Source of the DNA: an uncultured Actinomycetota bacterium
GTDB lineage: Bacteria > Actinomycetota > Humimicrobiia > Humimicrobiales > Humimicrobiaceae
Assembly (NCBI GenBank): GCA_964595565.1
Contig: CAZQQX010000001.1
Location: 8,074 to 72,073, forward strand
Reading direction: 5' to 3'
DNA length: 64,000 nucleotides
Shown: in pieces, positions 11,374 to 30,295 of the stretch
How positions within the stretch are numbered: position 1 is the stretch's first letter
How the letters are laid out: the number at the start of each line of letters is the position of its first letter
Notes under the pieces: model-generated
What the model was told of the DNA's origin: nothing
What the model saw: the letters and a program-made list of their open reading frames with translations, nothing else
Databases searched by the model: none
Program-made: the position numbers and the translations under genes

Positions 11374-12603
11374 ATGTTAAGAGATAAAAAAATACCCGAA
11401 CTTCTGGTTCCCGCCAATAATTTAAATATATTAAAATATGCGGTTAATTATGGTGCCGATGCTGTTTATGTTGGGGGTAAGAAGTTAAATTTAAGAAGCA
11501 TCAGAGGGAATTTTACAGTTGAGGAATTAAAAAGGGGAGTAAGTTATGCCCACGAGCATGGAGTAAAAGTATATTTTACTCTTAATTCAATAATAAGTGA
11601 AAGTGAAATTACCGGGGCCGAAAAGTATTTGAAAAGAATAAAGGATATTGATATTGACGGAATTATAGTAGCTGATTTTGGAGCTCTGGAGCTTGTGCGT
11701 AAAATTTTACCCGGGAAAAAGATACATATGAGCACCCAGGTTAATTTAAATAACCGCCTGGCAGTAAAATTTTTTGAAAAAATAGGGGTGGAAAGAGTAA
11801 ATCTTGCAAGAGAAATAAGTTTTTCGGATTTAAATAAAATTATAAAAGAAACAAATATTGAGCTGGAGATATTCATACACGGAGCATTGTGCATATCCTA
11901 TTCAGGTAGATGCATGCTTAGCAAGTATATGACAGGTCGGGATGCAAATAAGGGAAGATGTGCCCAGAGCTGCAGGTGGAAATATTATTTAATGGAAGAA
12001 GAAAGACCAAATATGCTTTTTCCCATAGAACAGTATAAAGAAGGGACGTTTATTTATAATTCAAGGGATCTGTGCCTTCTGGGCAGATTAAAGGAGCTTG
12101 TGGATACCGGAGTCAGCGCATTTAAGATAGAGGGAAGGATGAAAACAGAAAACTATGTAAGTGTGACAACATGGGTGTACAGAAAGGCGCTTGATTATGT
12201 AAAACAGGGAATTCTTGATAATGATAAAATATCTTATTTAAAAAATGAGCTTGAAAAGTGCTCCCACAGGAATTTTACCCAGGGATTCATGTTCCTGAAA
12301 GAAAGAAGTGAACTTGAAGATAATGATAATGTTGGCTATATAAAAAAATATAGATTTATAGGTGTATACCATGATTATAGTGAAAAGTATGATGGGCCAA
12401 TCATAAAGGTAAAAAATCAGTTTGTTAAGGGCGAAACAATTGATGTGCTGCAACCCTGCAGGGAACCTTTAAAATTCAGTGTAAAAAAAATATTATTGGT
12501 GGCCGATGAAAGGGAAGTAAAATGCGCGAATCCTAATGACCTGGTAATAATTTGCGGGCCTGGAAGGTTGCATCCCTTTTCAATTTTTAGAATTAAAGCA
12601 TGA
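11374..12603 (+). CDS. Peptidase U32 family Fe-S protein (TrhP-like tRNA hydroxylation protein)
   Basis: PELLVPA, GADAVYVG, HGALCISYSGRCMLS, NKGRCAQSCRWKY, RDLCL and FKIEGRMK motifs. Confidence 0.85.
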   Translation: MLRDKKIPELLVPANNLNILKYAVNYGADAVYVGGKKLNLRSIRGNFTVEELKRGVSYAHEHGVKVYFTLNSIISESEITGAEKYLKRIKDIDIDGIIVADFGALELVRKILPGKKIHMSTQVNLNNRLAVKFFEKIGVERVNLAREISFSDLNKIIKETNIELEIFIHGALCISYSGRCMLSKYMTGRDANKGRCAQSCRWKYYLMEEERPNMLFPIEQYKEGTFIYNSRDLCLLGRLKELVDTGVSAFKIEGRMKTENYVSVTTWVYRKALDYVKQGILDNDKISYLKNELEKCSHRNFTQGFMFLKERSELEDNDNVGYIKKYRFIGVYHDYSEKYDGPIIKVKNQFVKGETIDVLQPCREPLKFSVKKILLVADEREVKCANPNDLVIICGPGRLHPFSIFRIKA

Positions 12604-12674
12604 ATTATTTTTATTTTTGTTTTTACAGGTTTCATGTTTTAAAAATACAATAAAATTAATATAAATCTAAGAAG

Positions 12675-12703
12675 TTGAAAATATAAAAATTTTTTAGTAT
12701 TAT
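12675..12703 (+). promoter_or_regulatory. sigmaA-type promoter upstream of acyP-aroE-pilT-pilC
   Basis: TTGAAA-N17-TATTAT, 25 nt upstream of the acyP ATG. The AT-rich context raises the chance of a random match. Confidence 0.5.
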
Positions 12704-12727
12704 TATTATAAATAAATTAAAAGATAT

Positions 12728-13012
12728 ATGACTGAAAATATTAAAACATATAGGGCGGTACTGTCAGGAAGGGTTCAGGGTGTGGGATTCAGGTTCTATG
12801 TGGAGTCAGCAGCAGAAAGATATAATATTAAGGGTTATGTAAAAAATACAATTGAGGGTAGAGTGGAAACGGTATGCCAGGGAAGAGAAAAAGACCTGAA
12901 GATATTCATGGATAAAATAAAAAATGGGCCTTCTTTATCTTATGTAAATGAAGTAAAAATTGAAGAAATTAATGATAGCAGGGAATATAGTATATTTGAA
13001 ATAAAATATTAG
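12728..13012 (+). CDS. acyP: Acylphosphatase
   Basis: SGRVQGVGFRF and GYVKN motifs; 94 aa. Confidence 0.93.
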   Translation: MTENIKTYRAVLSGRVQGVGFRFYVESAAERYNIKGYVKNTIEGRVETVCQGREKDLKIFMDKIKNGPSLSYVNEVKIEEINDSREYSIFEIKY

Positions 13013-13057
13013 AACAGTAAATGTAACAATTTAACATAGTAAAAATGTGGTTTAAAA

Positions 13058-13942
13058 ATGATTGGTGCTAAAACAAGTGTGGTAGCTTTAATAGGGAACC
13101 CGGTGGGGCACAGCCACTCTCCGGCAATACAGAATTTTTTTATAAAAAAATATTCTATGGATGCTGTCTATCTTGCATTTGAATTTAGTGAAAAAAATTT
13201 AAAAAAAGCATTTAATGGTGCAGAGAAGCTGGGGTTTGCGGGCTTAAATGTAACCATGCCCTATAAGGAAAAAATATCGGGCATGGTTGATAAAAAAGAC
13301 AGTATAGCCCGGGTAACAAATTCGGTTAACACGGTAAAGTTTGATAAAAAAAAAGAAATTTCAAACGGCTTTAATACTGATGTGATGGGGTTTTTAAAAC
13401 CGCTGGATAAAAAGAATTTTAACTGGACAGAAAGCCGTTGCCTTGTGATAGGGGCAGGTGGTGCCGCAAGGAGTGTCATATATGGTATGGTGTTAAAGAA
13501 AGTAAAGAAAATATGGGTGCATAACAGAACAAAAGAAAAGGTAAGAAAAATAATAAAAGATTTTAAAACCCATCCTGATAATTTGATAGAGCCTCTTGAT
13601 AGCATTAATGAGCCGGGGGGGAAAGTTGATGACGCTGACTTAATTGTTAACTGCACGCCTATTGGAATGAATATAGAATCTTACCGGAATTTTATGCCGG
13701 TACCAGAAAAGTGTAATTTAAAAGATAAATTTATCTTTGATATGGTTTATGACCCTGTGGAAACGCTTTTAATAAAAAAAGCCATAAGGGAAGGGGCAGA
13801 GGTTATAAGTGGAATTGATTTATTGGTGAACCAGGCTGGGTTATCTTTTGAAATATGGTTCGGGATATTACCTGAAGATAACTGTATAGAGGATATAAAA
13901 AACAGGATTTTAATGGACATATCAAAAAAAAGATTAAAATAA
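13058..13942 (+). CDS. aroE: Shikimate dehydrogenase
   Basis: GNPVGHSHSP, GLNVTMPYK, SVNTV, NTDVMG, GAGGAARS, NCTPIGM and DMVYDP motifs. Confidence 0.95.
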   Translation: MIGAKTSVVALIGNPVGHSHSPAIQNFFIKKYSMDAVYLAFEFSEKNLKKAFNGAEKLGFAGLNVTMPYKEKISGMVDKKDSIARVTNSVNTVKFDKKKEISNGFNTDVMGFLKPLDKKNFNWTESRCLVIGAGGAARSVIYGMVLKKVKKIWVHNRTKEKVRKIIKDFKTHPDNLIEPLDSINEPGGKVDDADLIVNCTPIGMNIESYRNFMPVPEKCNLKDKFIFDMVYDPVETLLIKKAIREGAEVISGIDLLVNQAGLSFEIWFGILPEDNCIEDIKNRILMDISKKRLK

Positions 13943-14016
13943 TAAGATATTAACAAATTAAAAAAATAATATAAAATAAATAGAACACAATAAAAAGAAA
14001 AATAGATGGAGATAAG

Positions 14017-15075
14017 ATGAACATCAATGATATTTTACTTGAGGCCATAAATGTAAATGCATCGGATGTACATATTGTATGTGTCCTCCCCCCTATATTC
14101 AGGGTACATGGAAATCTGGTAAAGTTAGAAAAATTTGGAGATATTACTCCTGAACTGGCAGAAAAAATGTTAATCAGGATATTAAATGAAGAACAAATTA
14201 AAAGGTTAAGGGAAGGGCTGTCTGTTGATTTCTCTCATACTATATCGGGCTATGGGAGATTCAGATGCAGTTATTATTATCAGAGAAACACACTTGCAGC
14301 TGCTTTTAGATACATATCAAGAGTAATTCCATCTGTTGAAGAACTCGGTTTACCCCTTCAGATTAAAGAATTTGCAAAATATCCGCGGGGTCTCGTGCTG
14401 GTTACGGGCCCCACCGGTTGCGGTAAGTCAACGACACTTGCGTCCATAATTGAGATAATAAATCAAAACAGGTCTGAAAATATAATAACCGTTGAAGACC
14501 CTATAGAGTATCTGTTTACACATAAAAAAAGTATAATATCCCAGAGAGAAATATTGGCGGATGCTCATTCATTCGCAGATGCCCTTAAATATGTTTTGAG
14601 GGAAGACCCGGATGTTATAATGGTGGGAGAGATGAGGGACCTGGAGACAATATCAAGCACTCTTACTGCTGCAGAAACCGGGCACCTTGTTTTTTCTACC
14701 CTTCATACCCAGGACGCGCCCCAGACCATTGATAGGATAATAGATGTATTTCCAACTCATCAGCAAAGGCAGGTAAGGGCACAGCTTGCCGGAACTTTAA
14801 AGGCAGTACTGGTGCAACAGTTATTAACTACAAGAGAAGGTGATGGAAGGGTGCCTGCAACAGAGCTTATGTTCGTTAACGATGCCATAAAAAATATGAT
14901 AAGAGAAGTAAAGGTGCATCAGATTTATTCATCAATACAGGCGAGCGGCAGGAGGGGTATGATGACCATGGATATGTCGCTGGTGAACCTCTATAAGGCA
15001 GGAAAGATTTCAGAGGAAACGGCGCTGGAAAAGGCACACAGCGTAGAAGAGGTAAGAAGAATGATTAATGGCTGA
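14017..15075 (+). CDS. pilT: Type IV pilus retraction ATPase PilT
   Basis: Walker A GPTGCGKSTT, TVEDPIEY, LREDPDVIMVGEMRD, TGHLVFSTLHT and the PilT signature AIKNMIRE. It lacks the long N-terminal domains of PilB. Confidence 0.93.
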   Translation: MNINDILLEAINVNASDVHIVCVLPPIFRVHGNLVKLEKFGDITPELAEKMLIRILNEEQIKRLREGLSVDFSHTISGYGRFRCSYYYQRNTLAAAFRYISRVIPSVEELGLPLQIKEFAKYPRGLVLVTGPTGCGKSTTLASIIEIINQNRSENIITVEDPIEYLFTHKKSIISQREILADAHSFADALKYVLREDPDVIMVGEMRDLETISSTLTAAETGHLVFSTLHTQDAPQTIDRIIDVFPTHQQRQVRAQLAGTLKAVLVQQLLTTREGDGRVPATELMFVNDAIKNMIREVKVHQIYSSIQASGRRGMMTMDMSLVNLYKAGKISEETALEKAHSVEEVRRMING

Positions 15076-15110
15076 TTGTTTTTGAGAGTCAATAAAAGAG
15101 GGTTTTAATT

Positions 15111-16340
15111 ATGACAGTATACAATTATACGGTTAGGGATTTAAAAGGTGAGTCAATTAAGGGTTTTATAGATGCCGAAACACAGGATGTTGTTGAATCA
15201 AAGCTAAAGGACATGGGCTATTTTATAATCAATATTGATAAAGCAAAAGAAGAGAAAAAGCTCAAATTAAAAGGCTCTTCAGAAGGTTTTAGTTTTTTTA
15301 ATCGTATAAAAATAAGAGATATGGTTATTTTCACCAGGCAGTTTTCTACTCTTATTTCTTCGGGGATGTCCTTGCTTGAATCGCTTATTGTTCTTGAAAG
15401 GCAAACCGCGAATCTTAAGTTAAAAAAAATAATTTCAGAAATAAGGGTATACGTGGAATCGGGCCATTCACTATCAGAATCAATGGAAAACCACCCTAAA
15501 GTTTTTAGCAGGTTATATGTAAGTCTGATAAGGGCAGGCGAGGCGGGAGGCGTGCTTGATAGGACCATGAATGACCTGGCAAATTTCCTTGAAAGAGAAG
15601 AGGAATTGAGATTAACCATAAGAAATAAAACAGCTTATCCAAAATTTATTCTGGTTTTTGCTGCAATTATATCTATTGTGATGATAGTATTTCTGGTTCC
15701 TACTTTTGAAGGTATATATGAAGAGCTGGGAGCAGAGCTTCCGGGAATTACAAAAGCGGTTATGGCAGTAGGCGGGTTATTTAAAAATATATATTTTTAC
15801 CTTATTCTGGTAGTTGTTGTATTTGGTGGAAGATATTTATTTAAAAAATTCGTAAGTTCAAAAAAGGGAAGACACATAATGGATAGTGTAAAAATTAATT
15901 TGCCGAAATTTGGTGACCTCTTTAGAAAAATGTCGCTGGCAAGATTTGCGAGACATTTTGGGATATTGCTTGCCACCGGGGTTCCAATATTAAATTCACT
16001 GGAAATTGCCAAGGGAGTTGCGGACAATGTTATTATTGATGAAGCACTTGAAGAAATAAGGACCAGTATAAGAGAAGGGGAAAATATTTCTGATCCCATG
16101 TCAGGCATATCTATTTTCCCTGATATGATGGTACAGATGATAGGGGTGGGGGAAAGGACCGGTACGCTGGATAGCATTTCAAGTAAAATTGCGGATTTTT
16201 ATGATAACGAAGTGGCAAATACCATAGATATGCTGGTAACAGTGCTGGAACCCCTGATGCTTTTGTTTGTAGCGGGGTTTATAGGTATAATTGTAATATC
16301 AATGTATCTTCCGATGTTTAATATATACCAGGCAATGTAA
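15111..16340 (+). CDS. pilC: Type IV pilus platform protein PilC (GspF family)
   Basis: FTRQFSTLISSG, AGEAGG and GERTG...LEP motifs; two GspF repeats and three TM segments. Confidence 0.93.
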   Translation: MTVYNYTVRDLKGESIKGFIDAETQDVVESKLKDMGYFIINIDKAKEEKKLKLKGSSEGFSFFNRIKIRDMVIFTRQFSTLISSGMSLLESLIVLERQTANLKLKKIISEIRVYVESGHSLSESMENHPKVFSRLYVSLIRAGEAGGVLDRTMNDLANFLEREEELRLTIRNKTAYPKFILVFAAIISIVMIVFLVPTFEGIYEELGAELPGITKAVMAVGGLFKNIYFYLILVVVVFGGRYLFKKFVSSKKGRHIMDSVKINLPKFGDLFRKMSLARFARHFGILLATGVPILNSLEIAKGVADNVIIDEALEEIRTSIREGENISDPMSGISIFPDMMVQMIGVGERTGTLDSISSKIADFYDNEVANTIDMLVTVLEPLMLLFVAGFIGIIVISMYLPMFNIYQAM

Positions 16341-16383
16341 AATTAATAAAACATTTTTTTAATGGCATTATTCAGATTTAATC

Positions 16384-17193
16384 ATGGAAAAATTAAAATC
16401 AAAAAATTATGATACGGACAATATATTAAGGTTAAGAAATCTTACTGTGGAAGAATTAATAAAGATATATAAAAATACAGGCAGTTCTGAAATATTGAAT
16501 ATAATACTTGAAAAAACAAAGAAGCTTGCCTATAAGGTTGTTTCTGATTTTAAAATTAATTACTGTGATAGGAAAGACATAAGGCAGGTTGCGCTAACCG
16601 GTCTTGTAATAGCCATAAACAGGTTCAATACAGGTGTGGATACCAGGTTCTCCACTTTTGCCGTTAACTATATAAAAGGCGAAATACTTCACTTCATAAG
16701 AGATAACCGCCTGGTAAAAAGCCCACGGTGGTTGTGGAAGCTAAATAAAATATTCACCGAATATGTTAAAAAATATGAAAATCAAAATAATAGTTACCCT
16801 ACCATAGAGGAAATTTCAGAAGGAATAAATATACCGGTAGAAGGAGTAAATGAATTCTTAAAAGCCAGAGAGGCAGCCTTTTACAATAACAGGAAAATAA
16901 ATGATTGCGCCGGGGGTAACGGTAATAAAGCAGAAGATAATTTAAGTTATGATAGGAGCCTTATAAGGTCAAAGGAGTATAAAAGTTTTGACCTGGTAAT
17001 GGAAGATAAAATAATATTATGGGATGCCATAGACAGGCTGCATAAATTAAACAAAAAAATACTGGTTCTAAGTTATTTCCTGGGATTCAGCCAGGAGGAA
17101 ATAGGTAAGAAAATAGGAATTTCGCAGAAATCGGTTTCCAGAAAACTAAAAGAGAGTATAAAGCAGCTAAAAGAATACTTCGCGTGCAACTAA
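16384..17193 (+). CDS. Group 3 sigma factor, SigB/SigF/SigG-like
   Basis: Region 2: DIRQVALTGLVIAINRFN...RFSTFAVNYIKGEILHFIRD. Region 3: YPTIEEISEGINI. Region 4: SQEEIGKKIGISQKSVSR. Confidence 0.85.
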   Translation: MEKLKSKNYDTDNILRLRNLTVEELIKIYKNTGSSEILNIILEKTKKLAYKVVSDFKINYCDRKDIRQVALTGLVIAINRFNTGVDTRFSTFAVNYIKGEILHFIRDNRLVKSPRWLWKLNKIFTEYVKKYENQNNSYPTIEEISEGINIPVEGVNEFLKAREAAFYNNRKINDCAGGNGNKAEDNLSYDRSLIRSKEYKSFDLVMEDKIILWDAIDRLHKLNKKILVLSYFLGFSQEEIGKKIGISQKSVSRKLKESIKQLKEYFACN

Positions 17194-17249
17194 TTTTTTT
17201 GCCCCGAATTTAAAGATTTACCGGATACCCGATAAATATTTAATTATTA

Positions 17250-17278
17250 TTGACAAATATGTATGAAATAAATATTAT
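17250..17278 (+). promoter_or_regulatory. sigmaA-type promoter upstream of the major pilin
   Basis: TTGACA (17250-17255)-N17-TATTAT (17273-17278). Confidence 0.6.
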
Positions 17279-17385
17279 TGTATAATAAATAATTTTATAA
17301 TTTTATATTTTATTATATAATAATTAAATATAATTTTTAATTAATATATAATTTTCTATATTTAGGAATATAAATATAAATAAAT

Positions 17386-17410
17386 GTCTAAAAATTTTAT
17401 TTAAGGGTAT
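17386..17410 (+). promoter_or_regulatory. SigB-type promoter upstream of the major pilin
   Basis: GTCTAA (17386-17391)-N13-GGGTAT (17405-17410), one mismatch from the Bacillus SigB consensus GTTTAA-N12-14-GGGWAW, 55 nt before the pilin ATG. Confidence 0.55.
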
Positions 17411-17465
17411 AATAATATAATGAATAATAAAAAAATAATTTTCTATCAAATAAAGGAGGTAAGAA

Positions 17466-17876
17466 ATGAAGTGGTTATACAGGCATATGCATAAGGATGA
17501 GAAAGGATTCACACTTGTTGAACTTATGATAGTAATCATAATACTGGCAATCCTTACTGCAATTGCTGTACCGAGCTACATGGTATTAAGAAACAGGGCA
17601 AGGATAGCAGCAGCTCAGAGCGAATTAAAGAATATCGCCACTGCTCTGGAGATGCACTACGCGGATAAGGAAGCTTATCCGGCAACTACCTTTGCGGCAC
17701 TGGTGACAGCACTTGAAGGTGGTGCATATATGGATCCGGTACCTCCAACCGACCCATGGGATACTGGCTATGTATACACATTAGCTGCTGGTTCTTATAC
17801 CCTGGAAAGCTATGGACCGGATAAAGCGGACGCCGGTGATGACGATATAGAAATAATAGATGGGCAGCTGCAATAA
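17466..17876 (+). CDS. pilA: Major type IV pilin with GspG-like C-terminus
   Basis: Class III signal KDEKG/FTLVELMIV with Glu5; C-terminal DPWDTGYVY...SYGPDK..GDDDI as in the T2SS GspG family. Strong SD (GGAGGT), with its own promoter and terminator. Confidence 0.85.
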   Translation: MKWLYRHMHKDEKGFTLVELMIVIIILAILTAIAVPSYMVLRNRARIAAAQSELKNIATALEMHYADKEAYPATTFAALVTALEGGAYMDPVPPTDPWDTGYVYTLAAGSYTLESYGPDKADAGDDDIEIIDGQLQ

Positions 17877-17926
17877 TAGTGGCGATATAATACAAATTAT
17901 ATCGGAGTAAAAATAATATAAAAAAA

Positions 17927-17970
17927 TAAATTAAGAGGTAGTTATTAAGACTGCCTCTTAATTTATTTAA
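17927..17970 (+). terminator. Intrinsic terminator after the major pilin
   Basis: TAAATTAAGAGGTAG / CTGCCTCTTAATTTA stem followed by a T-rich tract. An A-tract upstream means it could be bidirectional. Confidence 0.8.
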
Positions 17971-17993
17971 ATTTCAGGTCAATATTTTAATTT

Positions 17994-18022
17994 TTGACTA
18001 AAGAAAAATACCATGTTATTAT
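17994..18022 (+). promoter_or_regulatory. sigmaA-type promoter for pilD-pilMNOP-aroCKB
   Basis: TTGACT-N17-TATTAT with an extended -10 TG at 18014-18015, just downstream of the pilin terminator. Confidence 0.6.
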
Positions 18023-18187
18023 TAAAAGATAAAAAAAATTATATAAATTTATATTATTAAAATATTAAAGTTATACAGGAAAAATAATTTTTTAAAATTA
18101 TTATTCAATTATAATAAATATAGCAATATAATAGAAAAAATATAAATTTACCGATTGTAAAAAAACTGTAATAAAGTAATAAGCAAA

Positions 18188-18949
18188 ATGGAAATATATA
18201 AAGTATTTTTATATATAATATTTATTACATGCGGCCTTACTGCAGGCAGCTTTCTTGGAGTTGTTGCATACAGGCTTCCCCGTAAAATATCTATAATAAA
18301 GCCGCGTTCATTTTGCCCCCATTGCAGAAAAGAGATTCCTTTTTATGATAATATTCCTGTAATTTCCTATATTATGCTCAGGGGAAGATGCAGGTTCTGT
18401 AAGAATAAGATACCGGTAAATACACTATTAATAGAATTAATAACCGCAATAGTATTTGTATTAAATTATATTTTTTTTGGTTTATCCGTAAAAACAATAA
18501 GCGGGATTATTCTATGCATCGTTCTGATAGTAATATCTTTTATTGACATTGAATTTCAAATAATACCAAATGCGATAATACTTCCATTTACCATTGTGGG
18601 GCTGGCATTAAGCGTTTTTTTAAATTTAGAAAGATGGTGGATGCCTCTTGCATTCGGTGCCGGGGCTTTTTTGTTTATGCTTATAATTCACCTTATAATT
18701 CCCCGGGGAATGGGAATGGGTGATGTCAAGTTAAGTCTTATGGCAGGAGTGTTTCTGGTAAGGGATGTGATACCGGCACTGTTTCTGGGGTTTCTGACAG
18801 GTGCATTGTATGGTGTATTGCTGGTTATCGCAAGAAAAAGGAAATTAAAACAGCTAGTAGCATTCGGGCCCTTTATTTCACTGGGAAGTATAATTGCTTT
18901 ATTTTGGGGTAATAATATTTTAAAATGGTATGTAAGTTTTTTAAAATAA
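18188..18949 (+). CDS. pilD: Prepilin peptidase / N-methyltransferase
   Basis: PRSFCPHC...GRCRFC zinc motifs, FIDIE and GMGMGDVKL catalytic Asp residues, and AFGPF. Confidence 0.95.
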   Translation: MEIYKVFLYIIFITCGLTAGSFLGVVAYRLPRKISIIKPRSFCPHCRKEIPFYDNIPVISYIMLRGRCRFCKNKIPVNTLLIELITAIVFVLNYIFFGLSVKTISGIILCIVLIVISFIDIEFQIIPNAIILPFTIVGLALSVFLNLERWWMPLAFGAGAFLFMLIIHLIIPRGMGMGDVKLSLMAGVFLVRDVIPALFLGFLTGALYGVLLVIARKRKLKQLVAFGPFISLGSIIALFWGNNILKWYVSFLK

Positions 18950-18956
18950 AAAGAGA

Positions 18957-20126
18957 GTGATTAAAATGCTGGCAGTAGGATTAAATTTAAGTTCATCAAG
19001 ATTAAGTATTGTTGAGCTTTTAAAATCAAGAAATGGCTTTACTATTGCGAATATGGCAAGAGAAGAGATACCACCGGACTGTATGGTCAAAGGGGAAGTT
19101 CAGGATGCACAAATTCTTTCAAACAGTTTAAAGGAAGTCTGGAGAAAAAATAAGATTTCTGACAGGAAAGTCTTCATCGGAATTGCAAACCAGAAAGTGA
19201 TTGCAAAAGAAATCCGGATACCGGTTATAAATGACGATGAAATAAAGAATTCCATACAATACCAGATCAGTGATTTTATTCCCATACCCAGGAATAATAT
19301 TTTATATGATTATTACGTGGTTGAAAAAGGAGAGGACCATTCAAGAATAATGCTGGTAGGGGCGATGAAGAGCATGATAAATGATGTGGTTTCAAGTTTT
19401 AAAAAGGCCGGTCTGCTCGCACAGGCTATTGATTTAAACTGCTTTGCATTATACAGGACGGTAAACTATATAAAAGGAATTGAAAAAGATAAAGATGTAA
19501 AGAACAAGCATACAGCTTTTTGTGTCGCGAACCTTGGAGTGGAAATTTCAATAATAGAGATGATACAGGACTATAACTTAAAATATCCGAGATTTACGTC
19601 TACTTCTATAGGAAGCTTTACTAATGAGATTTCAAAGGAAACAAAAAAAGATGATAAATATTGCGGGGAAGTATTATCAAAATTTGATTTCAAATCCCTG
19701 CTGTTAAAGAAAAACGAACCAGAAAAGAAGAAGAAAGAAACCGGAGATTCTTTCATTAAACCTGAAGAAAAAGAGAGTAAAAATTCCGGTAAAGATAAAG
19801 TTAAAGATGAGCCTGACAGCGATAAAGTGAAAGAAATAATAAAAAGCACCACGGATAGGTTTATAGGGGAAATTAAATTATCGGTGGAACACTTCTTACA
19901 GGAAAATCCCAAATCAAGTGTGGGGAAAATTATTTTAACCGGTGAATATATAAGAAATATTGATAAATATATAGAACAGGAAATAGAATATAAAGTTGAA
20001 ATGTTAAATATAAACGATTATTTTCCATTAAAAAATATTAAAATAGCTGCGGGTTATAGTGAAGACGGGGGTTACATGCTTGACCCGGTAGCTATAGGCA
20101 TGGCATTAAGGGGCTTAAATCAATGA
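18957..20126 (+). CDS. pilM: Type IV pilus assembly protein PilM
   Basis: Actin-like N-terminus (VGLNLSSSRLSIVE), IQYQISDFIPIP, IILTG and C-terminal VAIGMALRG; first gene of an M-N-O series. Confidence 0.85.
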   Translation: MIKMLAVGLNLSSSRLSIVELLKSRNGFTIANMAREEIPPDCMVKGEVQDAQILSNSLKEVWRKNKISDRKVFIGIANQKVIAKEIRIPVINDDEIKNSIQYQISDFIPIPRNNILYDYYVVEKGEDHSRIMLVGAMKSMINDVVSSFKKAGLLAQAIDLNCFALYRTVNYIKGIEKDKDVKNKHTAFCVANLGVEISIIEMIQDYNLKYPRFTSTSIGSFTNEISKETKKDDKYCGEVLSKFDFKSLLLKKNEPEKKKKETGDSFIKPEEKESKNSGKDKVKDEPDSDKVKEIIKSTTDRFIGEIKLSVEHFLQENPKSSVGKIILTGEYIRNIDKYIEQEIEYKVEMLNINDYFPLKNIKIAAGYSEDGGYMLDPVAIGMALRGLNQ

Positions 20127-20824
20127 AAACTATAAACCTCCTTCCAAAGGAAGAGAGAGTTAGAGATGTAAAAAGTATAATGCTTGGCGCGGTGATGGTA
20201 ATATTAATAATATTATTAATAGCAGCGGCCGGCTTTTCCTTTATAATTTACAACGTTAACCGCGGTCTAACACCGGAGCTGGAAAATTACGAAAGAGTAA
20301 ATATGCAGCTAAATAATTATATAAATAAATTACAGGCCTATACCAGTTTTAAAGAAGAAGTAAACAAGAAAGCTAAAGTTATAGAATATTTAAAGGCCAG
20401 GGAAATATTATGGTCGGACATACTTTATGATTTTGGAGAAAATATGCCGGAAAATGCTTATATTGATTATATGGAGGGTGACAGTGAGAGGTTTTATTCG
20501 TTAATTTCCAGCCTTGAAGAGGGTGAAGTTGAAGAGATAAATAAAGTATTATTATTTACAATTTCGGGAAATGCGCTTGATTACAAAGATGTTACGAGAT
20601 TACTGGTTTATTTAAGAAATATGGAAAATATAGGAGAAGTATGGATTAACAATATCAGTAAGGATTATGTAACAAGCTCCAATTTGGATGTATTATCTTT
20701 TAATATCAGCGCATATCTTGACATAGGGCCATATATAGAAGAACTGGGTCTGGATGAAGTTGAAAAAGAAGAGACCGGCGACGAAGAAATACTGGACCAG
20801 GAACTGGAGATGCTGAATCAGTAA
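20123..20824 (+). CDS. pilN: Type IV pilus assembly protein PilN
   Basis: N-terminal INLLP motif, a TM helix, a coiled coil and WSDIL. Confidence 0.85.
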   Translation: MKTINLLPKEERVRDVKSIMLGAVMVILIILLIAAAGFSFIIYNVNRGLTPELENYERVNMQLNNYINKLQAYTSFKEEVNKKAKVIEYLKAREILWSDILYDFGENMPENAYIDYMEGDSERFYSLISSLEEGEVEEINKVLLFTISGNALDYKDVTRLLVYLRNMENIGEVWINNISKDYVTSSNLDVLSFNISAYLDIGPYIEELGLDEVEKEETGDEEILDQELEMLNQ

Positions 20825-20860
20825 ATGTAGATAAATTAATAAATATTTTTTTATATTAAT

Positions 20861-21400
20861 ATGAATATTAAAATTAAAATAATTATAATAATAGCAATTT
20901 TTCTGGTGATTGTTTTACTTACGGTACTGGTTCTTGTTCCCAATCTGACTGCAAGTATTAAAAACAATGCTTCTATTGAAAGAGAAAAAGAAGAAAATAA
21001 AGCATTGATGGAGAATTTGAACAATCTTATTCTGGTAAGGGATGAATATCATTTAATGAATGCAGAATACCAGAAGTATTCATTACAACTCCCGACAGGC
21101 GGCGATAACAGTATTTTTACCAATGAGATTTATGATATTGCCAGTTACTCAGATGTGGATATTTACTCTATTAATTATTCAGAAAAAACTGTAAGTGAGG
21201 AAGAAGAAAAAATGGGCCTGGTTATAACTGAGGCCGATTTAATTATAGATGGTTCTTATTATGATATATTAAACTTCATAAACACGGTTGAAAAAATTCC
21301 GAGGATAGCAAAGGTCAATAAAATAATAATTCAATCTACGGGTAGCGAGTATGAATATTTGAGCGCCAATATAAGAATTGAATTGTATTATAAAAAATAA
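20861..21400 (+). CDS. pilO: Type IV pilus assembly protein PilO
   Basis: N-terminal TM, coiled coil, QLP and GSYYDILNFINTVEKIPRI motifs. Confidence 0.85.
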   Translation: MNIKIKIIIIIAIFLVIVLLTVLVLVPNLTASIKNNASIEREKEENKALMENLNNLILVRDEYHLMNAEYQKYSLQLPTGGDNSIFTNEIYDIASYSDVDIYSINYSEKTVSEEEEKMGLVITEADLIIDGSYYDILNFINTVEKIPRIAKVNKIIIQSTGSEYEYLSANIRIELYYKK

Positions 21401-21411
21401 ATTAAAAAAAT

Positions 21412-21951
21412 ATGATATTTAAAAAAAGTAAAAAAATAATTCCATCAAAGAGTTTTAACGTTAAGGATATTATAATTGCAGCCGGCTTTATAACGGTCTT
21501 TATTATTATGTCCATATCTGTTTATGGATGTTCTGTCATTAATCTCATGAGTAAAGACTATAGCGACGCAAAAGAGGAACCGGTTCTGCCAGAAGTTGAA
21601 ATAGATGAAAGCGAAGTTGAAGAAATTAAAAAGGGGGAAGAAGATATAAAGAAAGGCTATGTTATTGAAAGCGAAATCAAACTAATTGATGATTCAATAA
21701 GAGACCCATTTAAACCATTTTATATAGTAGAAGAAGAGGAAAAAGAAAATATTATTACACTGGAGAGAATCTTTAGCAAAGATGGGGTTGAATATGCCGA
21801 AATAAATTTTAATGAATATATTTATAATTTGAAAGAGTCTGATACTCTATCAGATGTTTATTTAATCAAGGCAATAAATATAAACTCGTTGGTATTATTA
21901 AAGGGAGACGAAATAATAACCCTGTATATCGGAATTCCGGTATACGACTGA
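21412..21951 (+). CDS. PilP-like putative lipoprotein
   Basis: Lipobox-like SVYGC after a hydrophobic stretch, acidic linker, RDPFKPF motif and beta-rich C-terminus. It sits immediately after pilO. Confidence 0.55.
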   Translation: MIFKKSKKIIPSKSFNVKDIIIAAGFITVFIIMSISVYGCSVINLMSKDYSDAKEEPVLPEVEIDESEVEEIKKGEEDIKKGYVIESEIKLIDDSIRDPFKPFYIVEEEEKENIITLERIFSKDGVEYAEINFNEYIYNLKESDTLSDVYLIKAININSLVLLKGDEIITLYIGIPVYD

Positions 21952-21967
21952 AAAAGGTGTTTAAAAT

Positions 21968-23143
21968 TTGAGATTTCTAACAGCCGGTGAGTCTCACGGA
22001 AAATATCTTACAGGAATTATAGATGAATATCCTTCAGGTGTTGAAATTGATGTAGATTTATTAAACAGAGAGCTTCACAGAAGACAGAGCGGTTTTGGAA
22101 GAGGCGGAAGGATGTCCATAGAAGATGACACCATAGAGATAATTTCCGGAGTAAGGAAAGGTAAAACTACTGGTTCCCCGGTATCTTTTATTATAGCAAA
22201 CAGGGACTGGGATAACTGGAAAGAGATAATGGATACAGGTCCACGGGGTAAAGAAAGGGACAGGGGTGGAGATAAATTATTGAATCCCAGGCCGGGACAT
22301 GCAGATTTAAATGGTTATATAAAATACAGGCTTGATGATATAAGAGATGTAATAGAGAGAAGCAGTGCAAGAGAGACAGCGGCAAGAGTGGCCGTGGGTT
22401 GTTTTGCCAGGATAATCTTAAAATTGCTTGGAATAAGTATATTCAGTTATGTATATCAGATAGGAAATATTGTATTGGGGAACAGAGTAAAAGAAGGAAG
22501 AATAAATGAGAGCACGCTAAAAGAAATTGAATCATCAGAAGTCAGGTGCCCCGATAAAGAAATTAGTTTAAAAATGAAGGAAGAAATAACCAGAGTAATC
22601 AAAAATGGCGACAGCATTGGAGGAAAATTCAGGGTCATTGCCACAGGGATACCTCCGGGTCTTGGCTCATATGAGCAATGGGATAAAAGGATTGACTCAA
22701 GGATAGCGGGTTTGTTTATGAGCATACCTGCAGTAAAAGCTATTGAAATCGGGGACGGGTTTATGGCACCATATATAACCGGGATTAATTTCCATGATAA
22801 AATTTACTATAAAAAAGGTACCGGTTTTTATAGAAAAACAAACAGAGCCGGAGGGATAGAGGGAGGAATAACAAACGGGGAATCGGTTGTTATAGGGGTA
22901 AGTATGAAGCCGGTACCCACCACATCTAAAGGTCCTGGCACGGTTAATATAAAAACAAAAAAAGCCTCAGCAAGCCTTAAAGAAAGGTCGGATGTCTGTG
23001 TGGTTCCGGCTGCTTCAGTGATTGGCGAATCAATGTTATCCATAGTGATTTTAAATGAAATACAGGAAAAGTTTGGTAAGGATAATATAGATGAAATTTT
23101 AGAAAATTATAAAAACTATAAAAAATATATTGGAAAAATTTAA
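21968..23143 (+). CDS. aroC: Chorismate synthase
   Basis: TAGESHG, PRPGHAD, ERSSARETAARVA, GGIEGGITNG and MKPVPT motifs. Confidence 0.97.
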   Translation: MRFLTAGESHGKYLTGIIDEYPSGVEIDVDLLNRELHRRQSGFGRGGRMSIEDDTIEIISGVRKGKTTGSPVSFIIANRDWDNWKEIMDTGPRGKERDRGGDKLLNPRPGHADLNGYIKYRLDDIRDVIERSSARETAARVAVGCFARIILKLLGISIFSYVYQIGNIVLGNRVKEGRINESTLKEIESSEVRCPDKEISLKMKEEITRVIKNGDSIGGKFRVIATGIPPGLGSYEQWDKRIDSRIAGLFMSIPAVKAIEIGDGFMAPYITGINFHDKIYYKKGTGFYRKTNRAGGIEGGITNGESVVIGVSMKPVPTTSKGPGTVNIKTKKASASLKERSDVCVVPAASVIGESMLSIVILNEIQEKFGKDNIDEILENYKNYKKYIGKI

Positions 23144-23149
23144 CATGAT

Positions 23150-23662: not shown

Positions 23663-23700
23663 GTAACCTTAAAATAAATATGTGGATAACCAAAAAGTAA

Positions 23701-24810: not shown

Positions 24811-24930
24811 ATAGAAATATATATAAGGAATATATCAAATATATTATTAATAGTTGAGCAGAGACTGAATTTTATACTAATTTTATTAATATACCGGGTT
24901 TGTAAATTTTTATTATAGGAAAAAGAAAAA

Positions 24931-25362: not shown

Positions 25363-25374
25363 TAAAAAAGTAAA

Positions 25375-26697
25375 ATGTTAAGCAGATATTTAAAGGTTAT
25401 TAAAAAATATATAAATAAGGAATTAAATTTAAAACAGGAAGATGGCTTTAGCCTTGTGGAGGTGATAGTAGCTTTTTTTATAATGTCTATTATAACTGTC
25501 GTGCTGGTAAGGGGAACTATGATCGCGGTTGATACTATAAAAGTAAATAAAGCAAAAACTAAAGCTTTAGCGGTTGCCAGTGAAAAAATGGAGCTCATAA
25601 GGGCAATGGATTATGAAGGCATTGAGCTTACATCCGTAAATCCTGACTGGGGTGAGGATAACCCTGCGCTTATTGAAGATGGTTATGGTATAAGCTATGA
25701 AGTCAGTGAAGTTTATGTAAGTGGAAGTAGCTATAAGCAGATAAAGTTATCTATCTCAAAAGATCCGATGAATACAGCGATAAATGTAATTACACAGATT
25801 TATCCCCTGGCAGGGGGCGGGGAAGGAACAAACCCGGGCGACACTACACCGCCTGAGGCACCGACCGGGCTGGTAGCTACAGCAACCGGCTCATACAGTA
25901 TAGACCTTGACTGGGATGACAACACAGAGCCAGACCTGGCAGGATATAAAGTATACAGGGATACTGTAAGCGGATTTACACCCGATGGCGGTAATTTTGT
26001 AGCAGATGCGACTTCAAGTTTGTATTCTGATACTGGACTAACTGCCACAACAACGTATTATTACAGAGTAACAGCAGTGGATAACAGCAGTAATGAGTCA
26101 GACCCATCTATTCAGGCAGACGCTACGACATTATCAGGAAGTGACACTACACCGCCTGAGGCACCGACCGGGCTGGTAGCTACAGCAACCGGCTCATACA
26201 GTATAGACCTTGACTGGGATGACAACACAGAGCCAGACCTGGCAGGATATAAAGTATACAGGGATACTGTAAGCGGATTTACACCCGATGGCGGTAATTT
26301 TGTAGCAGATGCGACTTCAAGTTTGTATTCTGATACTGGACTAACTGCCACAACAACGTATTATTACAGAGTAACAGCAGTGGATAACAGCAGTAATGAG
26401 TCAGACCCATCTATTCAGGCAGACGCTACGACATTATTAGAATATACTTATATAAGTTTACCGTTTGAGCATGATGGGGCAGGAGAATATTATTGGAAAT
26501 CAGACGGGTTTTCAACTGACCCGGGGGATTGGGCAAGCTATGTGAACTCATGGAGCCTAGACATTCTTGAGATTAACGGGGTAAATTATACCAATAAGTG
26601 GAAGGCACAACATGATATACCGCCAGAAAGTGACGGTTACTGGTATATTTATTATAAAGCAAGTTCTAAGAATGGTCATATAGAAATTGGTCCATAG
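25375..26697 (+). CDS. Minor pilin (PilV/GspI-like) with two Fn3 domains and a C-terminal CBM64-like module
   Basis: Class III signal QEDG/FSLVEVIV; PilV-like helix KAKTKALAVASEKMELIR; two DTTPPEAPTGL...WDDNTEPDLAGYKVYR...YYYRVTAVD Fn3 repeats; C-terminal LPFEHDGAGEYYWK...DW..YVNSW...DGYWYI module. Confidence 0.8.
   Translation: MLSRYLKVIKKYINKELNLKQEDGFSLVEVIVAFFIMSIITVVLVRGTMIAVDTIKVNKAKTKALAVASEKMELIRAMDYEGIELTSVNPDWGEDNPALIEDGYGISYEVSEVYVSGSSYKQIKLSISKDPMNTAINVITQIYPLAGGGEGTNPGDTTPPEAPTGLVATATGSYSIDLDWDDNTEPDLAGYKVYRDTVSGFTPDGGNFVADATSSLYSDTGLTATTTYYYRVTAVDNSSNESDPSIQADATTLSGSDTTPPEAPTGLVATATGSYSIDLDWDDNTEPDLAGYKVYRDTVSGFTPDGGNFVADATSSLYSDTGLTATTTYYYRVTAVDNSSNESDPSIQADATTLLEYTYISLPFEHDGAGEYYWKSDGFSTDPGDWASYVNSWSLDILEINGVNYTNKWKAQHDIPPESDGYWYIYYKASSKNGHIEIGP
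25840..26437 (+). repeat. Perfect tandem duplication, 2 x 295 bp (period 303 bp = 101 codons)
   Basis: 25840-26134 and 26143-26437 read identical base for base by eye; each encodes one Fn3 domain. Confidence 0.9.
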
Positions 26698-26806
26698 GGT
26701 AATGGTATTTAAATTAATTTATATAAGAATTATTTTTGGAGTTTGGGTAAATGAAAGAAGTTATAATTATATAAATAGTTTAATAAAAATATAAGAGATA
26801 AACTAA

Positions 26807-27388
26807 ATGATTAAGTTACGAGGAAAAATTTTTAAAAAGATAACAGATAATAAGGGTTTTACAATGATTGAGATGCTTCTGGTAGTTCTTCTTATTGTCG
26901 TTATTGTAAGCATGGTTTCGGCTACATATCTCCTATCGGGAAATACATCAAGAGATATTGTTGATATAACCACTTCAATGATAGACTCAAGGGTTGTTAT
27001 ATACAGATTGACCAAAGACTTAAGGGAATCATCTGATATAACTCAGGCATATGCAGACAGTATAATTTTTACAAGCAACGTTGATGATGATGGGGATGAT
27101 GAGGTAGTAAATTACTATTTAACAGCTGTAGGTAGTTATTATGAACTTTACAGGAAAATAGATACAGAGCCTGCTAAATTTGTAGCCACCAATATAATTG
27201 ATAATAACCTATTTACTTATTATACAGATATAGGAACTCCAGAAGGAGGAGTTGTCACTCCTGTTAGTGCAGAAGAGTTAGGAAATATAAAATTAATTGG
27301 AATTGAACTGAAAATTGACCAGAGCGGAGGAGATACCCAGAGAAAAATGGAACTTGAAACTGTTGTTTCTCTGAGAAATAGAATATAA
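26807..27388 (+). CDS. Minor pilin (PilW/GspJ-like)
   Basis: Class III signal DNKG/FTMIEMLLVV with Glu5; RLTKDLRES helix; C-terminal TVVSLRN. Confidence 0.8.
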   Translation: MIKLRGKIFKKITDNKGFTMIEMLLVVLLIVVIVSMVSATYLLSGNTSRDIVDITTSMIDSRVVIYRLTKDLRESSDITQAYADSIIFTSNVDDDGDDEVVNYYLTAVGSYYELYRKIDTEPAKFVATNIIDNNLFTYYTDIGTPEGGVVTPVSAEELGNIKLIGIELKIDQSGGDTQRKMELETVVSLRNRI

Positions 27389-27414
27389 ATTATTTTTTAT
27401 ATAATATTTTTAAA

Positions 27415-29040
27415 GTGATTAAAATGATAAAAGTAATATTAAATTTAAAAAAAGAAAAAAGAGGCAATATAACCATACTTATTTTAATAATGGGTTTTGC
27501 AGTAATATTGCTGACCACTGCTATGGTTGGATATATTTTTCGTGACATTAACTATGTTGAACTTGACAGGAAAAAATTAAGGGCACTAAATATCGCAGAG
27601 GCAGGCATATCAAACATGTTTTTGAATATTGAAAAACATTATACCGAAGAAGATGTTACTTTACCCTCAAGTCCCTATACCGGAGAAATAATTGATAATG
27701 GTAATTCAGAGGGAACTTTTACTGTTGAATATGACTCACAGTCTGATGGGGACTTGACTATATACAATGTTACTTCTACAGGTGTTGACAAAGATGGTAT
27801 GGAAAGAATGGTAAGAGTAAAAATAAATGTTTTAAATCCAGGTCCCGCTCTTGACATTTATGACTATGTATATACAGCGACATCAGCTACTACCAGCGGG
27901 GACTTCAAGACTGTAGATGGGCCTTTTTATACTGATGGAGATCTAAATATTACCGCAGGTTCCGGTATATCCCAGGACCAGAGCGAAGGGCCAATAATTG
28001 TAAAAGGTGACTTATATATAAGTGGAGATGCAGTTAGTGTAAAGCAGGAATTTCTATCAGTAGGTGGAAATGTGGTAATGGGAGGCAGCGGAAAGATACT
28101 GGGTGGCCAGGTTAACATAGCAGGCAGCCTTACCATGTCCGGAGGGACTTATATAGACGAGGGGCTGGTAAGCCCGATGATTGTAATGGGTGATATTGAT
28201 ATGAGCAGCGGCAGCCCCCGTATAGGAGAATCGGGGGAAGACCTTATTCTATCATGTAACGGGACAATAAACCCCTGGCCTCCAAATTCATGGGCCCCGA
28301 TATACGCCACCAGGGATGACAGTCTGACATATACATTTGTTGACCCTCAGTATGATGTTAGTAGTCTTATTGATGAATACTATTCTGAAGTTCAGGACTC
28401 TGCAGATCCTATTAATGGAAATCTTACACTGAGTGATGAAAACGTACCTTATAACTATGAAGATACATATGGAAACAGTCTCAGTTTTGAGAAAGAGGGA
28501 GATGACTATGTACTGGAAATTAATGGAAATATAATTGTAGATGGTAATTTACAGATTGGAATTGAAGAGTGGTGGATTCCTGAATTAAGCGGTCCCAGCA
28601 CCAATGAAATATATTACAGGGGTAAAGGAATTATATATACCACCGGAAATATCAAGACAGTTACCACGCTCTGGCCCGACCCCCTGGAAGATTTTCCTGA
28701 AAGTACTCTCCTGGTGCTGGTATCAAATGGGACTATTGAATCATATGTATGGAGAGAATATGATTATATTGTCGCAAGTAATATTAATGACCAGCCCCCG
28801 CTTATGTATATGGTAGGGATTGCAAAAGGCAATATAAAAATAGCGGGAGGGGGAGGAAATGCAGCCATTGTAAAGGGTACGTTGATTACTGGTGGCCTTC
28901 TTGATGCTGATTATTATAATGCCAAAATTTATTACCAGCAGGGAATTAAAGATAGTTTACCTCCCGAGCTTCCCAGCAGTGATCCGGGTGGAGGGGAAAT
29001 AGTCATTACCAGAGCAGAATGGCAGGAAGCAATTAATTAA
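27415..29040 (+). CDS. Minor pilin (PilX/GspK-like) with glycine-rich beta-solenoid-like region
   Basis: KKEKRG/NITILILIMG (no Glu5, as in PilX/GspK); ALNIAEAGI PilX-N motif; VTSTG; repeated xxxxGDLxIxG units; C-terminal WQE. Confidence 0.75.
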   Translation: MIKMIKVILNLKKEKRGNITILILIMGFAVILLTTAMVGYIFRDINYVELDRKKLRALNIAEAGISNMFLNIEKHYTEEDVTLPSSPYTGEIIDNGNSEGTFTVEYDSQSDGDLTIYNVTSTGVDKDGMERMVRVKINVLNPGPALDIYDYVYTATSATTSGDFKTVDGPFYTDGDLNITAGSGISQDQSEGPIIVKGDLYISGDAVSVKQEFLSVGGNVVMGGSGKILGGQVNIAGSLTMSGGTYIDEGLVSPMIVMGDIDMSSGSPRIGESGEDLILSCNGTINPWPPNSWAPIYATRDDSLTYTFVDPQYDVSSLIDEYYSEVQDSADPINGNLTLSDENVPYNYEDTYGNSLSFEKEGDDYVLEINGNIIVDGNLQIGIEEWWIPELSGPSTNEIYYRGKGIIYTTGNIKTVTTLWPDPLEDFPESTLLVLVSNGTIESYVWREYDYIVASNINDQPPLMYMVGIAKGNIKIAGGGGNAAIVKGTLITGGLLDADYYNAKIYYQQGIKDSLPPELPSSDPGGGEIVITRAEWQEAIN

Positions 29041-29082
29041 AATATTAAACAGGTTTGGTTTTACGGGAAATTTCGGTATAAA

Positions 29083-30201: not shown

Positions 30202-30295
30202 ATGTTCCGGAGTATAGGAAATAACAAATAGGGTGTTATCAAAATAAAAGAAGGAAACATTTAAAAAAATAAGAAATTTGTAAGGATGCTGATTA

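Follow-up and report, generated by a model that had tools for sequence, protein, structure and literature searches.

Control by sigma-54 and PilR is the textbook arrangement for type IV pilin genes, and pilin genes such as pilA1 of C. difficile are also controlled by cyclic di-GMP (c-di-GMP) riboswitches. Here we describe a sigma factor gene that lies inside a type IV pilus (T4P) cluster, between pilC and the major pilin gene pilA, at 16384..17193 on the + strand of a 64-kb stretch of DNA from an uncultured Actinomycetota bacterium (contig CAZQQX010000001.1; this whole stretch is called the window, and positions given without another contig name refer to it). From comparison of the locus with its relatives it would seem likely that this factor, a member of the SigB/SigF/SigG group made together with pilT and pilC, directs RNA polymerase to a promoter of the form GTCTAA-N13-GGGTAT in front of pilA. 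To our knowledge, and as a first-pass annotation of the window had it, the sigF gene of cyanobacteria lies outside the pil cluster.

The action of SigF on cyanobacterial pilA1 is functionally the closest known case. SigF reads the pilA1 promoter stringently, with TAGGC at -32 and GGTAA at -12, and autoregulates (PMC2532724); its loss abolishes both pilA1 transcripts and pili (PMC11345509). The window factor resembles the cyanobacterial proteins (Synechocystis slr1564, S. elongatus SigF1, Nostoc SigF) in being a group-3 sigma factor of the SigB/F/G branch, in its predicted pilin promoter and in the G-rich -12/-10 box, but the -35 box is GTCTAA here rather than TAGGC. Also unlike cyanobacterial SigF, the window lineage has no autoregulatory copy of the motif, such copies being found only in the related contigs L059, L084, L104 and L027. 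With SigB of S. aureus and B. subtilis and with sporulation SigF it shares the domain layout, a GT-rich -35 box, a short spacer, GGGWAW and most of the DNA contacts. It differs from them in the change of R97 to H and of M237 to K/R (SigB numbering), in a PRW motif and in having GTCTAA instead of GTTTWW, and it has no adjacent RsbV/RsbW or SpoIIAA/AB module. Its predicted target is moreover a pilin gene and not a set of stress or sporulation genes.

In Rubrobacter, Actinoplanes and other Actinomycetota, T4P genes are controlled by WhiG, a sigma factor of the sigma-28 family under an RsiG-c-di-GMP switch, whose promoters are of the TAAA/GCCGATAA type (PMC8325347, PMC12871210). The first-pass annotation listed cyanobacterial SigF among pilin regulators but omitted this WhiG-dependent control, already known in Actinobacteria (PMC8325347). 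Like the window factor as proposed here, WhiG is an alternative sigma factor that acts on T4P genes of deep-branching Actinobacteria and is tied to c-di-GMP; for the window factor this tie comes from riboswitches in its relatives. However, the two are of different sigma families, and TAAA-N15-GCCGATAA is not found before the pil genes here. The signal also enters differently: through the anti-sigma protein RsiG for WhiG, through riboswitch RNA in the relatives of the window factor, and in the window lineage not at all. As in riboswitch-controlled pilins, the contigs L026, L103 and L031 place a c-di-GMP-I aptamer between promoter and pilin gene, while the window has none.

No paper on a SigB/F-like sigma factor encoded between pilC and pilA, or on its promoter, was found in open-access text, nor was a relevant one on Atribacter with pili and a sigma factor. 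Among the known cases that we could find, none joins a dedicated sigma promoter to a riboswitch. Since alternative-sigma control of pilin genes is known, the comparison suggests that what is new is a sigma factor encoded inside the pil cluster with no visible partner-switching module.

The sigma factor and its family

The open reading frame (ORF) encodes 269 amino acids (aa) from an ATG start and was identified as a SigB/SigF-like group-3 sigma gene through Pfam, NCBIfam and profile alignment. Sigma70_r2 (34.5 bits) and Sigma70_r4 (37.8 bits) both score above their Pfam cut-offs, while Sigma70_r3 is weak, at 21.1 bits against a cut-off of 25.3. The best NCBIfam model is TIGR02980 for SigB/SigF/SigG with 136.3 bits, followed by the SigF model NF005644 with 120.1 bits, both under their cut-offs (234.35 and 261). 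We take NF005644 to be the cyanobacterial SigF model, and by this score the window factor falls outside that subfamily. The models for sporulation SigF, SigB and SigG give 109, 94 and 92 bits, all far below cut-off. Those for FliA/WhiG, at 82 and 69 bits, fall well under the SigB/SigF/SigG score (TIGR02479, 81.9 bits, has a cut-off of 189.6). When a family profile is aligned with S. aureus SigB (8x6g_H, 119 bits) and G. stearothermophilus SigF (1l0o_C, 113 bits), the match covers profile positions 17-262 of 266, region 3 included, compared with 63 bits for SigA and 57 bits for FliA. The layout of sigma2, sigma3 and sigma4 with no region 1.1 matches the SigB/F/G type of about 250 aa. The near-full-length alignment to SigB and SigF, taken with the sub-cut-off scores, points to a complete but divergent group-3 sigma factor of the SigB/F/G type. 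The low SigB/SigF/SigG and SigF scores together with the lack of a partner-switching module suggest that it is SigB/SigF-like in its working and lies outside every curated subfamily.

The first-pass annotation had called the ORF a complete group-3 sigma factor set between pilC and the major pilin gene, of SigB/SigF type, and had seen no anti-sigma or anti-anti-sigma gene in the window. These statements hold. The ORF carries sigma2, sigma3 and sigma4 and has the flanking genes described; the hidden Markov model scores, the match to profiles of PDB entries and a rough tree place it in the SigB/F/G group and not with FliA/WhiG. A Pfam search of every + strand ORF of at least 94 aa in the 64 kb gave no RsbW/SpoIIAB-type kinase, STAS or other known anti-sigma domain. 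Nor was there a partner-switching gene among the eleven window genes (up341 to aroC) that were traced by tblastn in the 12-kb loci of relatives.

The family is well separated from other sigma factors. Its 75 homologues are 51-99% identical to the window protein, after which identity falls to 32%, and in a library clustered at 50% identity the family forms a single cluster (384 bits), the next protein scoring 135 bits at 36% identity. In 23 family sequences down to 50% identity, 57 alignment columns are invariant, among them DNA-contact residues; together with the intact protein this indicates purifying selection on the gene. H at the position of SigB R97, K/R at that of M237 and the PRW motif form a residue signature of the sigma factors linked to pil genes. 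The signature is carried by all 75 family members, although one is truncated ahead of the motif in region 4.2. Of the 149 nearest representatives at 50% identity, about 31 have it in full or lack one readable part (22 have it in full), and these crowd the top ranks. Among the 118 matches to an outgroup profile, H occurs with K/R in all but two, PRW as well in only 46. SigB-like sequences have R and M at the two signature positions and sporulation SigF-like ones R and V. All pil-linked relatives again have TIGR02980 as best model and NF005644 as second, both below cut-off. In a neighbour-joining tree the sequences with the signature, every pil-linked one included, form one clade apart from those of S. 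aureus SigB and G. stearothermophilus SigF, and members of a neighbouring clade with H and M score best on NF005644; this is a single rough tree with no bootstrap, its only labelled reference sequences being fragments of two PDB entries and of one SigA, and it is indicative only.

The candidate promoter before pilA and its predicted reading

The spacers between the sigma gene and pilA share one sharply conserved element, ATGTCTAA-N13-GGGTATAAT, with invariant spacing. It occurs once per locus, always before pilA and 40-100 nucleotides (nt) upstream, in all 20 readable loci. In the window this predicted cognate promoter is at 17384..17413 (+ strand), with the -35 box GTCTAA at 17386-17391 and the -10 box GGGTAT at 17405-17410, and the GTCTAA-N13-GGGTAT element lies 56 nt before the pilA ATG. 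The promoter contains the sole intergenic GGGTAT on the + strand of the 64 kb, and relaxed patterns give no other intergenic copy. No meaningful WhiG/sigma-28 or sigma-54 promoter turned up before pilA or other pil genes; the only match to TAAA-N15-GCCGATAA in the spacer at up to two mismatches (17210) overlaps a hairpin that follows the sigma gene and is not kept beyond the near-identical contig L001. Before a pilin-like gene further downstream, which encodes a CBM64 module, two copies of GGGTAT lie inside aroQ, neither with a GTCT box at the right spacing. An Rfam scan of 12000-27000 (E <= 1) gave no riboswitch or other RNA family.

In S. aureus, SigB promoters follow the consensus GTTTWW and GGGWAW with about 14 nt between the boxes; the shortness of this spacer is explained by recognition of the GGG in double-stranded form, at the boundary where sigma2 ends and sigma3 begins (PMC11156646). 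The pilA element is a candidate promoter of this type with one systematic change, C for T at the third position of the -35 box (-33). In the SigB cryo-EM structure R110, R100 and R97 read -15G, -14G and -13G, F79 and F86 form the pocket for -11A and R74 touches the backbone; in the -35 box R241 reads -35G, S235 reads -34T, M237 the A opposite -33T and Q236 the A opposite -32T (PMC11156646). When eleven SigB contact positions are compared with the window family, seven are identical, two are changed, that of R244 varies (K/R/Q) and F79 is not conserved. The equivalents R80, F92, R106 and R115 in region 2.4/3.0 and S247, Q248 and R253 in region 4.2 are invariant across 23 sequences, and the two changes, His103 for R97 and Lys/Arg249 for M237, are invariant too. 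The single altered -35 contact (M to K/R) therefore coincides with the single altered -35 base (T to C), and a Lys or Arg at the position that reads -33 is what is expected for reading the G opposite C. A second co-variation was seen in a single, Atribacterota-like lineage: E or H stands in place of R110, and the -10 box lacks its first G (GGAATAAT).

We propose the following working for the window locus. The sigma factor would be made from a pilT-pilC-sigma transcript, as the gene gaps and synteny suggest, would bind core RNA polymerase and would guide it to the GTCTAA-N13-GGGTAT element before pilA. Recognition would be as in S. aureus SigB, with region 4.2 reading the -35 box: the Arg253 equivalent would read G, Ser247 would read T and Gln248 the fourth-position T, while Lys/Arg249, in place of SigB Met237, would match the C that is peculiar to this family at position three. 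Where region 2 gives way to region 3, Arg106, Arg115 and His103 would recognise the -10 GGG in double-stranded form, which would explain the short 13-nt spacer. Transcription of pilA would start near 17420 and give a monocistronic, terminator-bounded pilin mRNA with a short unstructured leader and a strong Shine-Dalgarno sequence. Such wiring would couple bulk pilin output to expression of the machinery operon, and a separate upstream promoter of sigma-70-like type may supply basal or alternative expression of pilA. In related lineages the module would be gated by c-di-GMP-I riboswitches, lying between promoter and pilin gene or before the sigma gene. Some lineages have the motif before the sigma gene itself, which would imply autoregulation; the window lineage has neither a riboswitch nor such a copy.

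The spacer between the sigma gene and pilA is 272 nt long and AT-rich, the pilA leader is predicted to be unstructured and the Shine-Dalgarno sequence, AAGGAGG, is strong. Past pilA an intrinsic terminator at 17925..17967 (+ strand; 19-bp stem, -22.7 kcal/mol, z -8.1, U-rich tract) is strong enough to suggest that pilA is a monocistronic unit. Just past the sigma stop codon there is a weak hairpin, an inverted repeat at 17216..17237 (listed on the + strand; -7 kcal/mol, z -2.6), found only in the window and in L001; it is a possible leaky operon terminator of uncertain role. With only this weak hairpin, reported for the - strand, after the sigma gene, read-through into pilA would be possible. 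The window sequence is fully present in salt-marsh metagenomes, and in two salt-marsh metatranscriptomes pilA is the only gene of the region seen, in two short contigs both within it; no contig reaches the sigma gene or its junction with pilC. Such a pattern is consistent with pilA having the highest expression among the genes there, and it is silent on start sites and on co-transcription.

The module in relatives and rival explanations

The gene order is kept throughout the close relatives. In 24 related loci, from a scan of one genome per species and with sigma identities of 49-95%, the order aroE-pilT-pilC-sigma-pilA-pilD-pilM-pilN-pilO-orf179-aroC is identical in every one as far as the contigs reach, and pilC-sigma-pilA is also found in about 36 metagenome contigs of the clade. 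Those carriers that have a name are labelled uncultured Actinomycetota or Candidatus Humimicrobiaceae. At the pilC-sigma junction the median gap is 35 nt, and 36 of 38 loci fall within 2-80 nt; so short a gap fits an operon, and the co-transcription with pilT-pilC that the first-pass annotation had put forward is consistent with it. That annotation had staked its proposal on the gene keeping this place in relatives. All 24 species-level genomes keep the order, which recurs around sigma factors only 34-37% identical, and one contig of 2.2 kb departs from it. Its further claim, that the factor switches on pilin expression, gains from the SigB-type promoter before pilA in every relative and from the fitting change in a contact residue, while a second, sigma-70-like promoter upstream makes the factor probably not the only driver of pilA.

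The nearest outgroup sigma genes, encoding proteins 34-37% identical to the window factor, also follow pilC, and the pilin promoters are of the same type at 34-55% GC. The gene for P0078 (contig L026) lies between the 3' end of pilC and a prepilin gene; its promoter GACTAA-N13-GGGTAG is followed by a c-di-GMP-I riboswitch (61 bits; 1342-1420) and a terminator, and then by the pilin gene. P0081 (L033) follows pilC and is itself followed by ATGTCTAA-N13-GGGTATAAT, and L071 has pilC, sigma gene, motif and pilin gene in this order at 34% GC. In a Thermoleophilia-labelled contig (L103, 52% GC, P0336) aroE-pilB-pilT-pilC-sigma leads to GTCTAG-N13-GGGTAG, a c-di-GMP-I-GGC riboswitch (7946-8025), two pilin genes and minor pilins. 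In L105 (55% GC, P0328), whose Lpt genes suggest a diderm, pilB-pilT-pilC-sigma leads to GTCTAA-N13-GGGTAT and two pilin genes. P0080 and P0228 have relatives labelled Atribacteria or Caldatribacteriota, and their own loci have the order alaS-ruvX-yceG-..-pilB-pilC-sigma-sigma-DUF6982-DUF6982-pilin-pilin. Here GTCTAA-N15-GGAATAAT precedes both pilin genes, and tandem c-di-GMP-I riboswitches, in L031 at 13225-13311 and 13387-13479, stand before the second.

The two tandem sigma genes of this Atribacterota-like lineage (L031, 10001-12440; also L029, L030 and L032) are paralogous and are followed by genes for two DUF6982 proteins of 140-150 aa. The layout suggests that these are cognate partner proteins, possibly anti-sigma factors; the open-access literature gave no relevant paper on DUF6982.

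Two further relatives at 70% GC are not beside pilC. In an Armatimonadota-labelled contig (L104) the sigma gene, for P0342, is itself preceded by GTCTAA-N14-GGGTAC and by a c-di-GMP-I-GGC riboswitch, and pilB and a further riboswitch are nearby; the c-di-GMP-I-type riboswitches of this contig, before the sigma gene and pilB, are at 6798-6875, 1929-2020 and 14069-14157. P0079 (L027) has GTCTAC-N14-GGGCAT before its sigma gene. What is conserved over these lineages is therefore a GTCTA...GGGTA core, and not the TATAAT found in AT-rich ones, which argues against a housekeeping promoter.

Several points weigh against the proposal that this factor drives pilA. The contig without the sigma gene (L046, same clade; 805-1120) has pilC directly followed by the usual promoter and pilA; the gene may have been lost or moved naturally, or the contig may be misassembled. 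The assignments of residues to bases are inferred by transfer from one structure at about 30% identity. A sigma-70-like candidate, TTGACA-17-TATTAT at 17250..17278 (+ strand), is the best of 12500-18300 with 11 of 12 positions, by consensus match only; most relatives have TTGCAA/TTGACA-N17-TATACT some 60-70 nt upstream of the GTCTAA box, at a place that is degenerate in the window (17294-17330). With such an upstream promoter pilA probably need not depend on the sigma factor alone. The -10 box also overlaps a perfect TATAAT in AT-rich lineages, and a housekeeping sigma factor might use it as well. Sigma factors of the SigB/F type are normally paired with RsbW/SpoIIAB, which is not seen in the 64 kb. 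Finally, the view of the regulon is confined to the 64 kb and the 12-kb loci, and a factor "dedicated" to the pilus, as first described, would be supported only within this available DNA.

The most serious alternative, which we nevertheless consider unlikely, is a general stress or stationary-phase sigma factor of SigB-like type with a broad regulon in which pilA is one of many targets. The closest named families, SigB and SigF, are indeed global regulators, and only about 2-3% of the genome was inspected if this is assumed to be roughly 2-3 Mb. A global regulator would not, however, usually keep its place in a pilC-sigma-pilin order over phylum-level distances; in the 64 kb and in every 12-kb locus the motif stands before pilA and nowhere else, and no partner-switching genes are nearby. 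A scan of a public metagenome collection with the exact pattern ATGTCTAA-N13-GGGTATAAT bears on the same question. It gave 71 sites in 69 contigs. A prepilin start codon lies 40-104 nt downstream of 35 sites, two more are cut off by contig ends, and all 37 fall in this pil cluster where flanks exist. In L059 (1403-1432) and L084 (2832-2861) a second copy of the motif stands 82 nt upstream of the sigma gene, in a pilC-sigma gap of 332 nt instead of about 35 nt, which implies autoregulation in that sublineage, and in L083 the motif is 31 nt before a homologue of the CBM64 pilin-like gene of the window. About 21 of the remaining sites (some 31) fall in frames that stay open for more than 130 codons and appear to be matches by chance, and about 10 are outside long ORFs, before assorted genes. 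Sites outside long ORFs are therefore mostly those of this cluster (37 pilA, 2 sigma and 1 minor pilin, against about 10), although one in L052, a similar AT-rich contig, precedes a gene whose product, small and either secreted or in the membrane, cannot be recognised as a pilin.

It is less probable still that the pilA element is a housekeeping SigA promoter centred on TATAAT, with GTCTAA as the operator of another regulator and the targets of the sigma factor elsewhere. GGGTATAAT does contain TATAAT in all AT-rich members, and a sigma-70-type scan gives many matches in so AT-rich a spacer, but no TTGACA-like hexamer lies 17±1 nt upstream of TATAAT (TGTCTA matches 2 of 6 positions) and the register is wrong for the TG of an extended -10. 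Higher-GC relatives have GGGTAG, GGGTAC or GGGCAT and no TATAAT, while GTCTA and GGG persist; the element travels with the sigma family and is found also before the sigma gene itself, and a 13-nt spacing is of SigB and not of sigma-70 type (PMC11156646).

That the factor acts mainly on the machinery or its own operon, or is a functionless, decaying passenger, is scarcely credible: the motif does precede the sigma gene in two metagenome contigs and in the Armatimonadota-like and P0079 loci, and the start codon at 16384 has no obvious Shine-Dalgarno sequence, but the window clade has no motif before pilT, pilC, the sigma gene or pilD, and the protein is intact with its invariant columns, DNA-contact residues included.

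The surrounding cluster and the wider meaning of the module

The window has about 33% GC and all its called genes are on the + strand. The order around the sigma gene is aroE, pilT, pilC, sigma, the spacer, pilA, the terminator, pilD, pilM, pilN, pilO and an ORF of 179 aa, followed by aroC, aroK, aroB, aroQ, three pilin-like genes, pepP, efp and nusB. Pfam and NCBIfam scans identify aroE (13058-13942). The gene for the retraction ATPase PilT (14017..15075; Pfam T2SSE; TIGR01420 pilT_fam, 446 bits against a cut-off of 319) keeps its position in relatives and is the first gene of the putative pilT-pilC-sigma operon. The gene for the platform protein PilC (15111..16340; two Pfam T2SSF domains, 208 bits) begins 35 nt past pilT and ends 43 nt before the sigma gene. 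pilA (17466..17876) encodes the major prepilin of 136 aa, with Pfam N_methyl and T2SSG matches and a KG|FTLVELM motif. pilD, pilM, pilN and pilO, recognised by Pfam, and the gene for the 179-aa membrane protein occupy 18188..21951 and are syntenic in relatives. PilT, PilC, PilD, PilM, PilN, PilO and prepilins of a type IVa set are therefore present, while the extension ATPase PilB was not found in the 64 kb, where only PilT, the ATPase for retraction, is present; in more distant relatives pilB lies directly upstream of pilT/pilC.

The conserved 179-aa ORF after pilO (21412-21951) gave no Pfam match; it has a membrane segment at the N-terminus together with an acidic linker and an RDPF motif, and by this motif is probably a PilP-like component. 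Past aroQ, the three genes for pilin-like proteins or minor pilins (25375..29040, + strand) were recognised by N_methyl motifs and a weak DUF7305 match. The product of the first (25375-26697) has a prepilin motif at its N-terminus, two Fn3 domains and, at its C-terminus, the carbohydrate-binding module CBM64; it may be a carbohydrate-binding pilus adhesin. Its Fn3 units are a perfect tandem duplication of 303 bp with 100% identity (repeat 25840-26437), either a very recent event or an assembly artefact.

The pil genes sit within a housekeeping backbone of alaS-ruvX-yceG...aroE, then aroC-aroK-aroB-aroQ, the minor pilins and pepP-efp-nusB (13058-30856). This linkage recurs: the Thermoleophilia-labelled L103 has aroE before pilB and the Atribacterota-like L031 has alaS-ruvX-yceG before pilB. 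By these shared neighbours the linkage of pil and housekeeping genes appears in contigs attributed to different phyla.

Elsewhere in the window, a large protein with 7TM, PAS, GAF, GGDEF and HD-GYP domains is encoded at 49523-52117, which indicates that the host has c-di-GMP signalling although its pilin leader is without the riboswitch of its relatives. A protein of 822 aa (44059-46527) combines LVIVD repeats or a beta-propeller with a PKD domain and a core of transglutaminase-like type; probably located at the cell surface, it has no evident link to the sigma factor.

Sigma factors of this kind are found in contigs labelled Actinomycetota/Ca. Humimicrobiaceae, Thermoleophilia, Atribacterota and Armatimonadota and in unnamed lineages. 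The case is evenly poised for regarding them as one uncharacterised, ancient, multi-phylum subfamily of pilus-cluster sigma factors, marked by GEIxH[FY][IL]RD...PRW...SQ[KR]xVSR and by a GTCTA-N13/14-GGGTA promoter. If this is true, the sigma factor and the c-di-GMP-I riboswitches would form a self-contained module for pilin expression, and the control of pilA1 by SigF in cyanobacteria would be a dispersed descendant or a sister arrangement. The exchange of Met for Lys/Arg, with that of T for C at -33, would then insulate the module from SigB and SigF regulons.

Beside sigma-54/PilR, cyanobacterial SigF and actinobacterial WhiG, a sigma factor that is encoded within the pilus cluster and reads a promoter code of its own would add another route of pilin control, apparently a widespread one, in poorly studied, mostly uncultured phyla. 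The pair is compact and directly testable: a single protein, in which one residue is predicted to switch specificity, and a DNA element of 30 bp. It offers an expression module that is orthogonal by nature and could help to predict piliation and its control by c-di-GMP in metagenome-assembled genomes. It also suggests an evolutionary link between SigB/SigF and the pilus, which may predate the roles of these factors in stress and sporulation.

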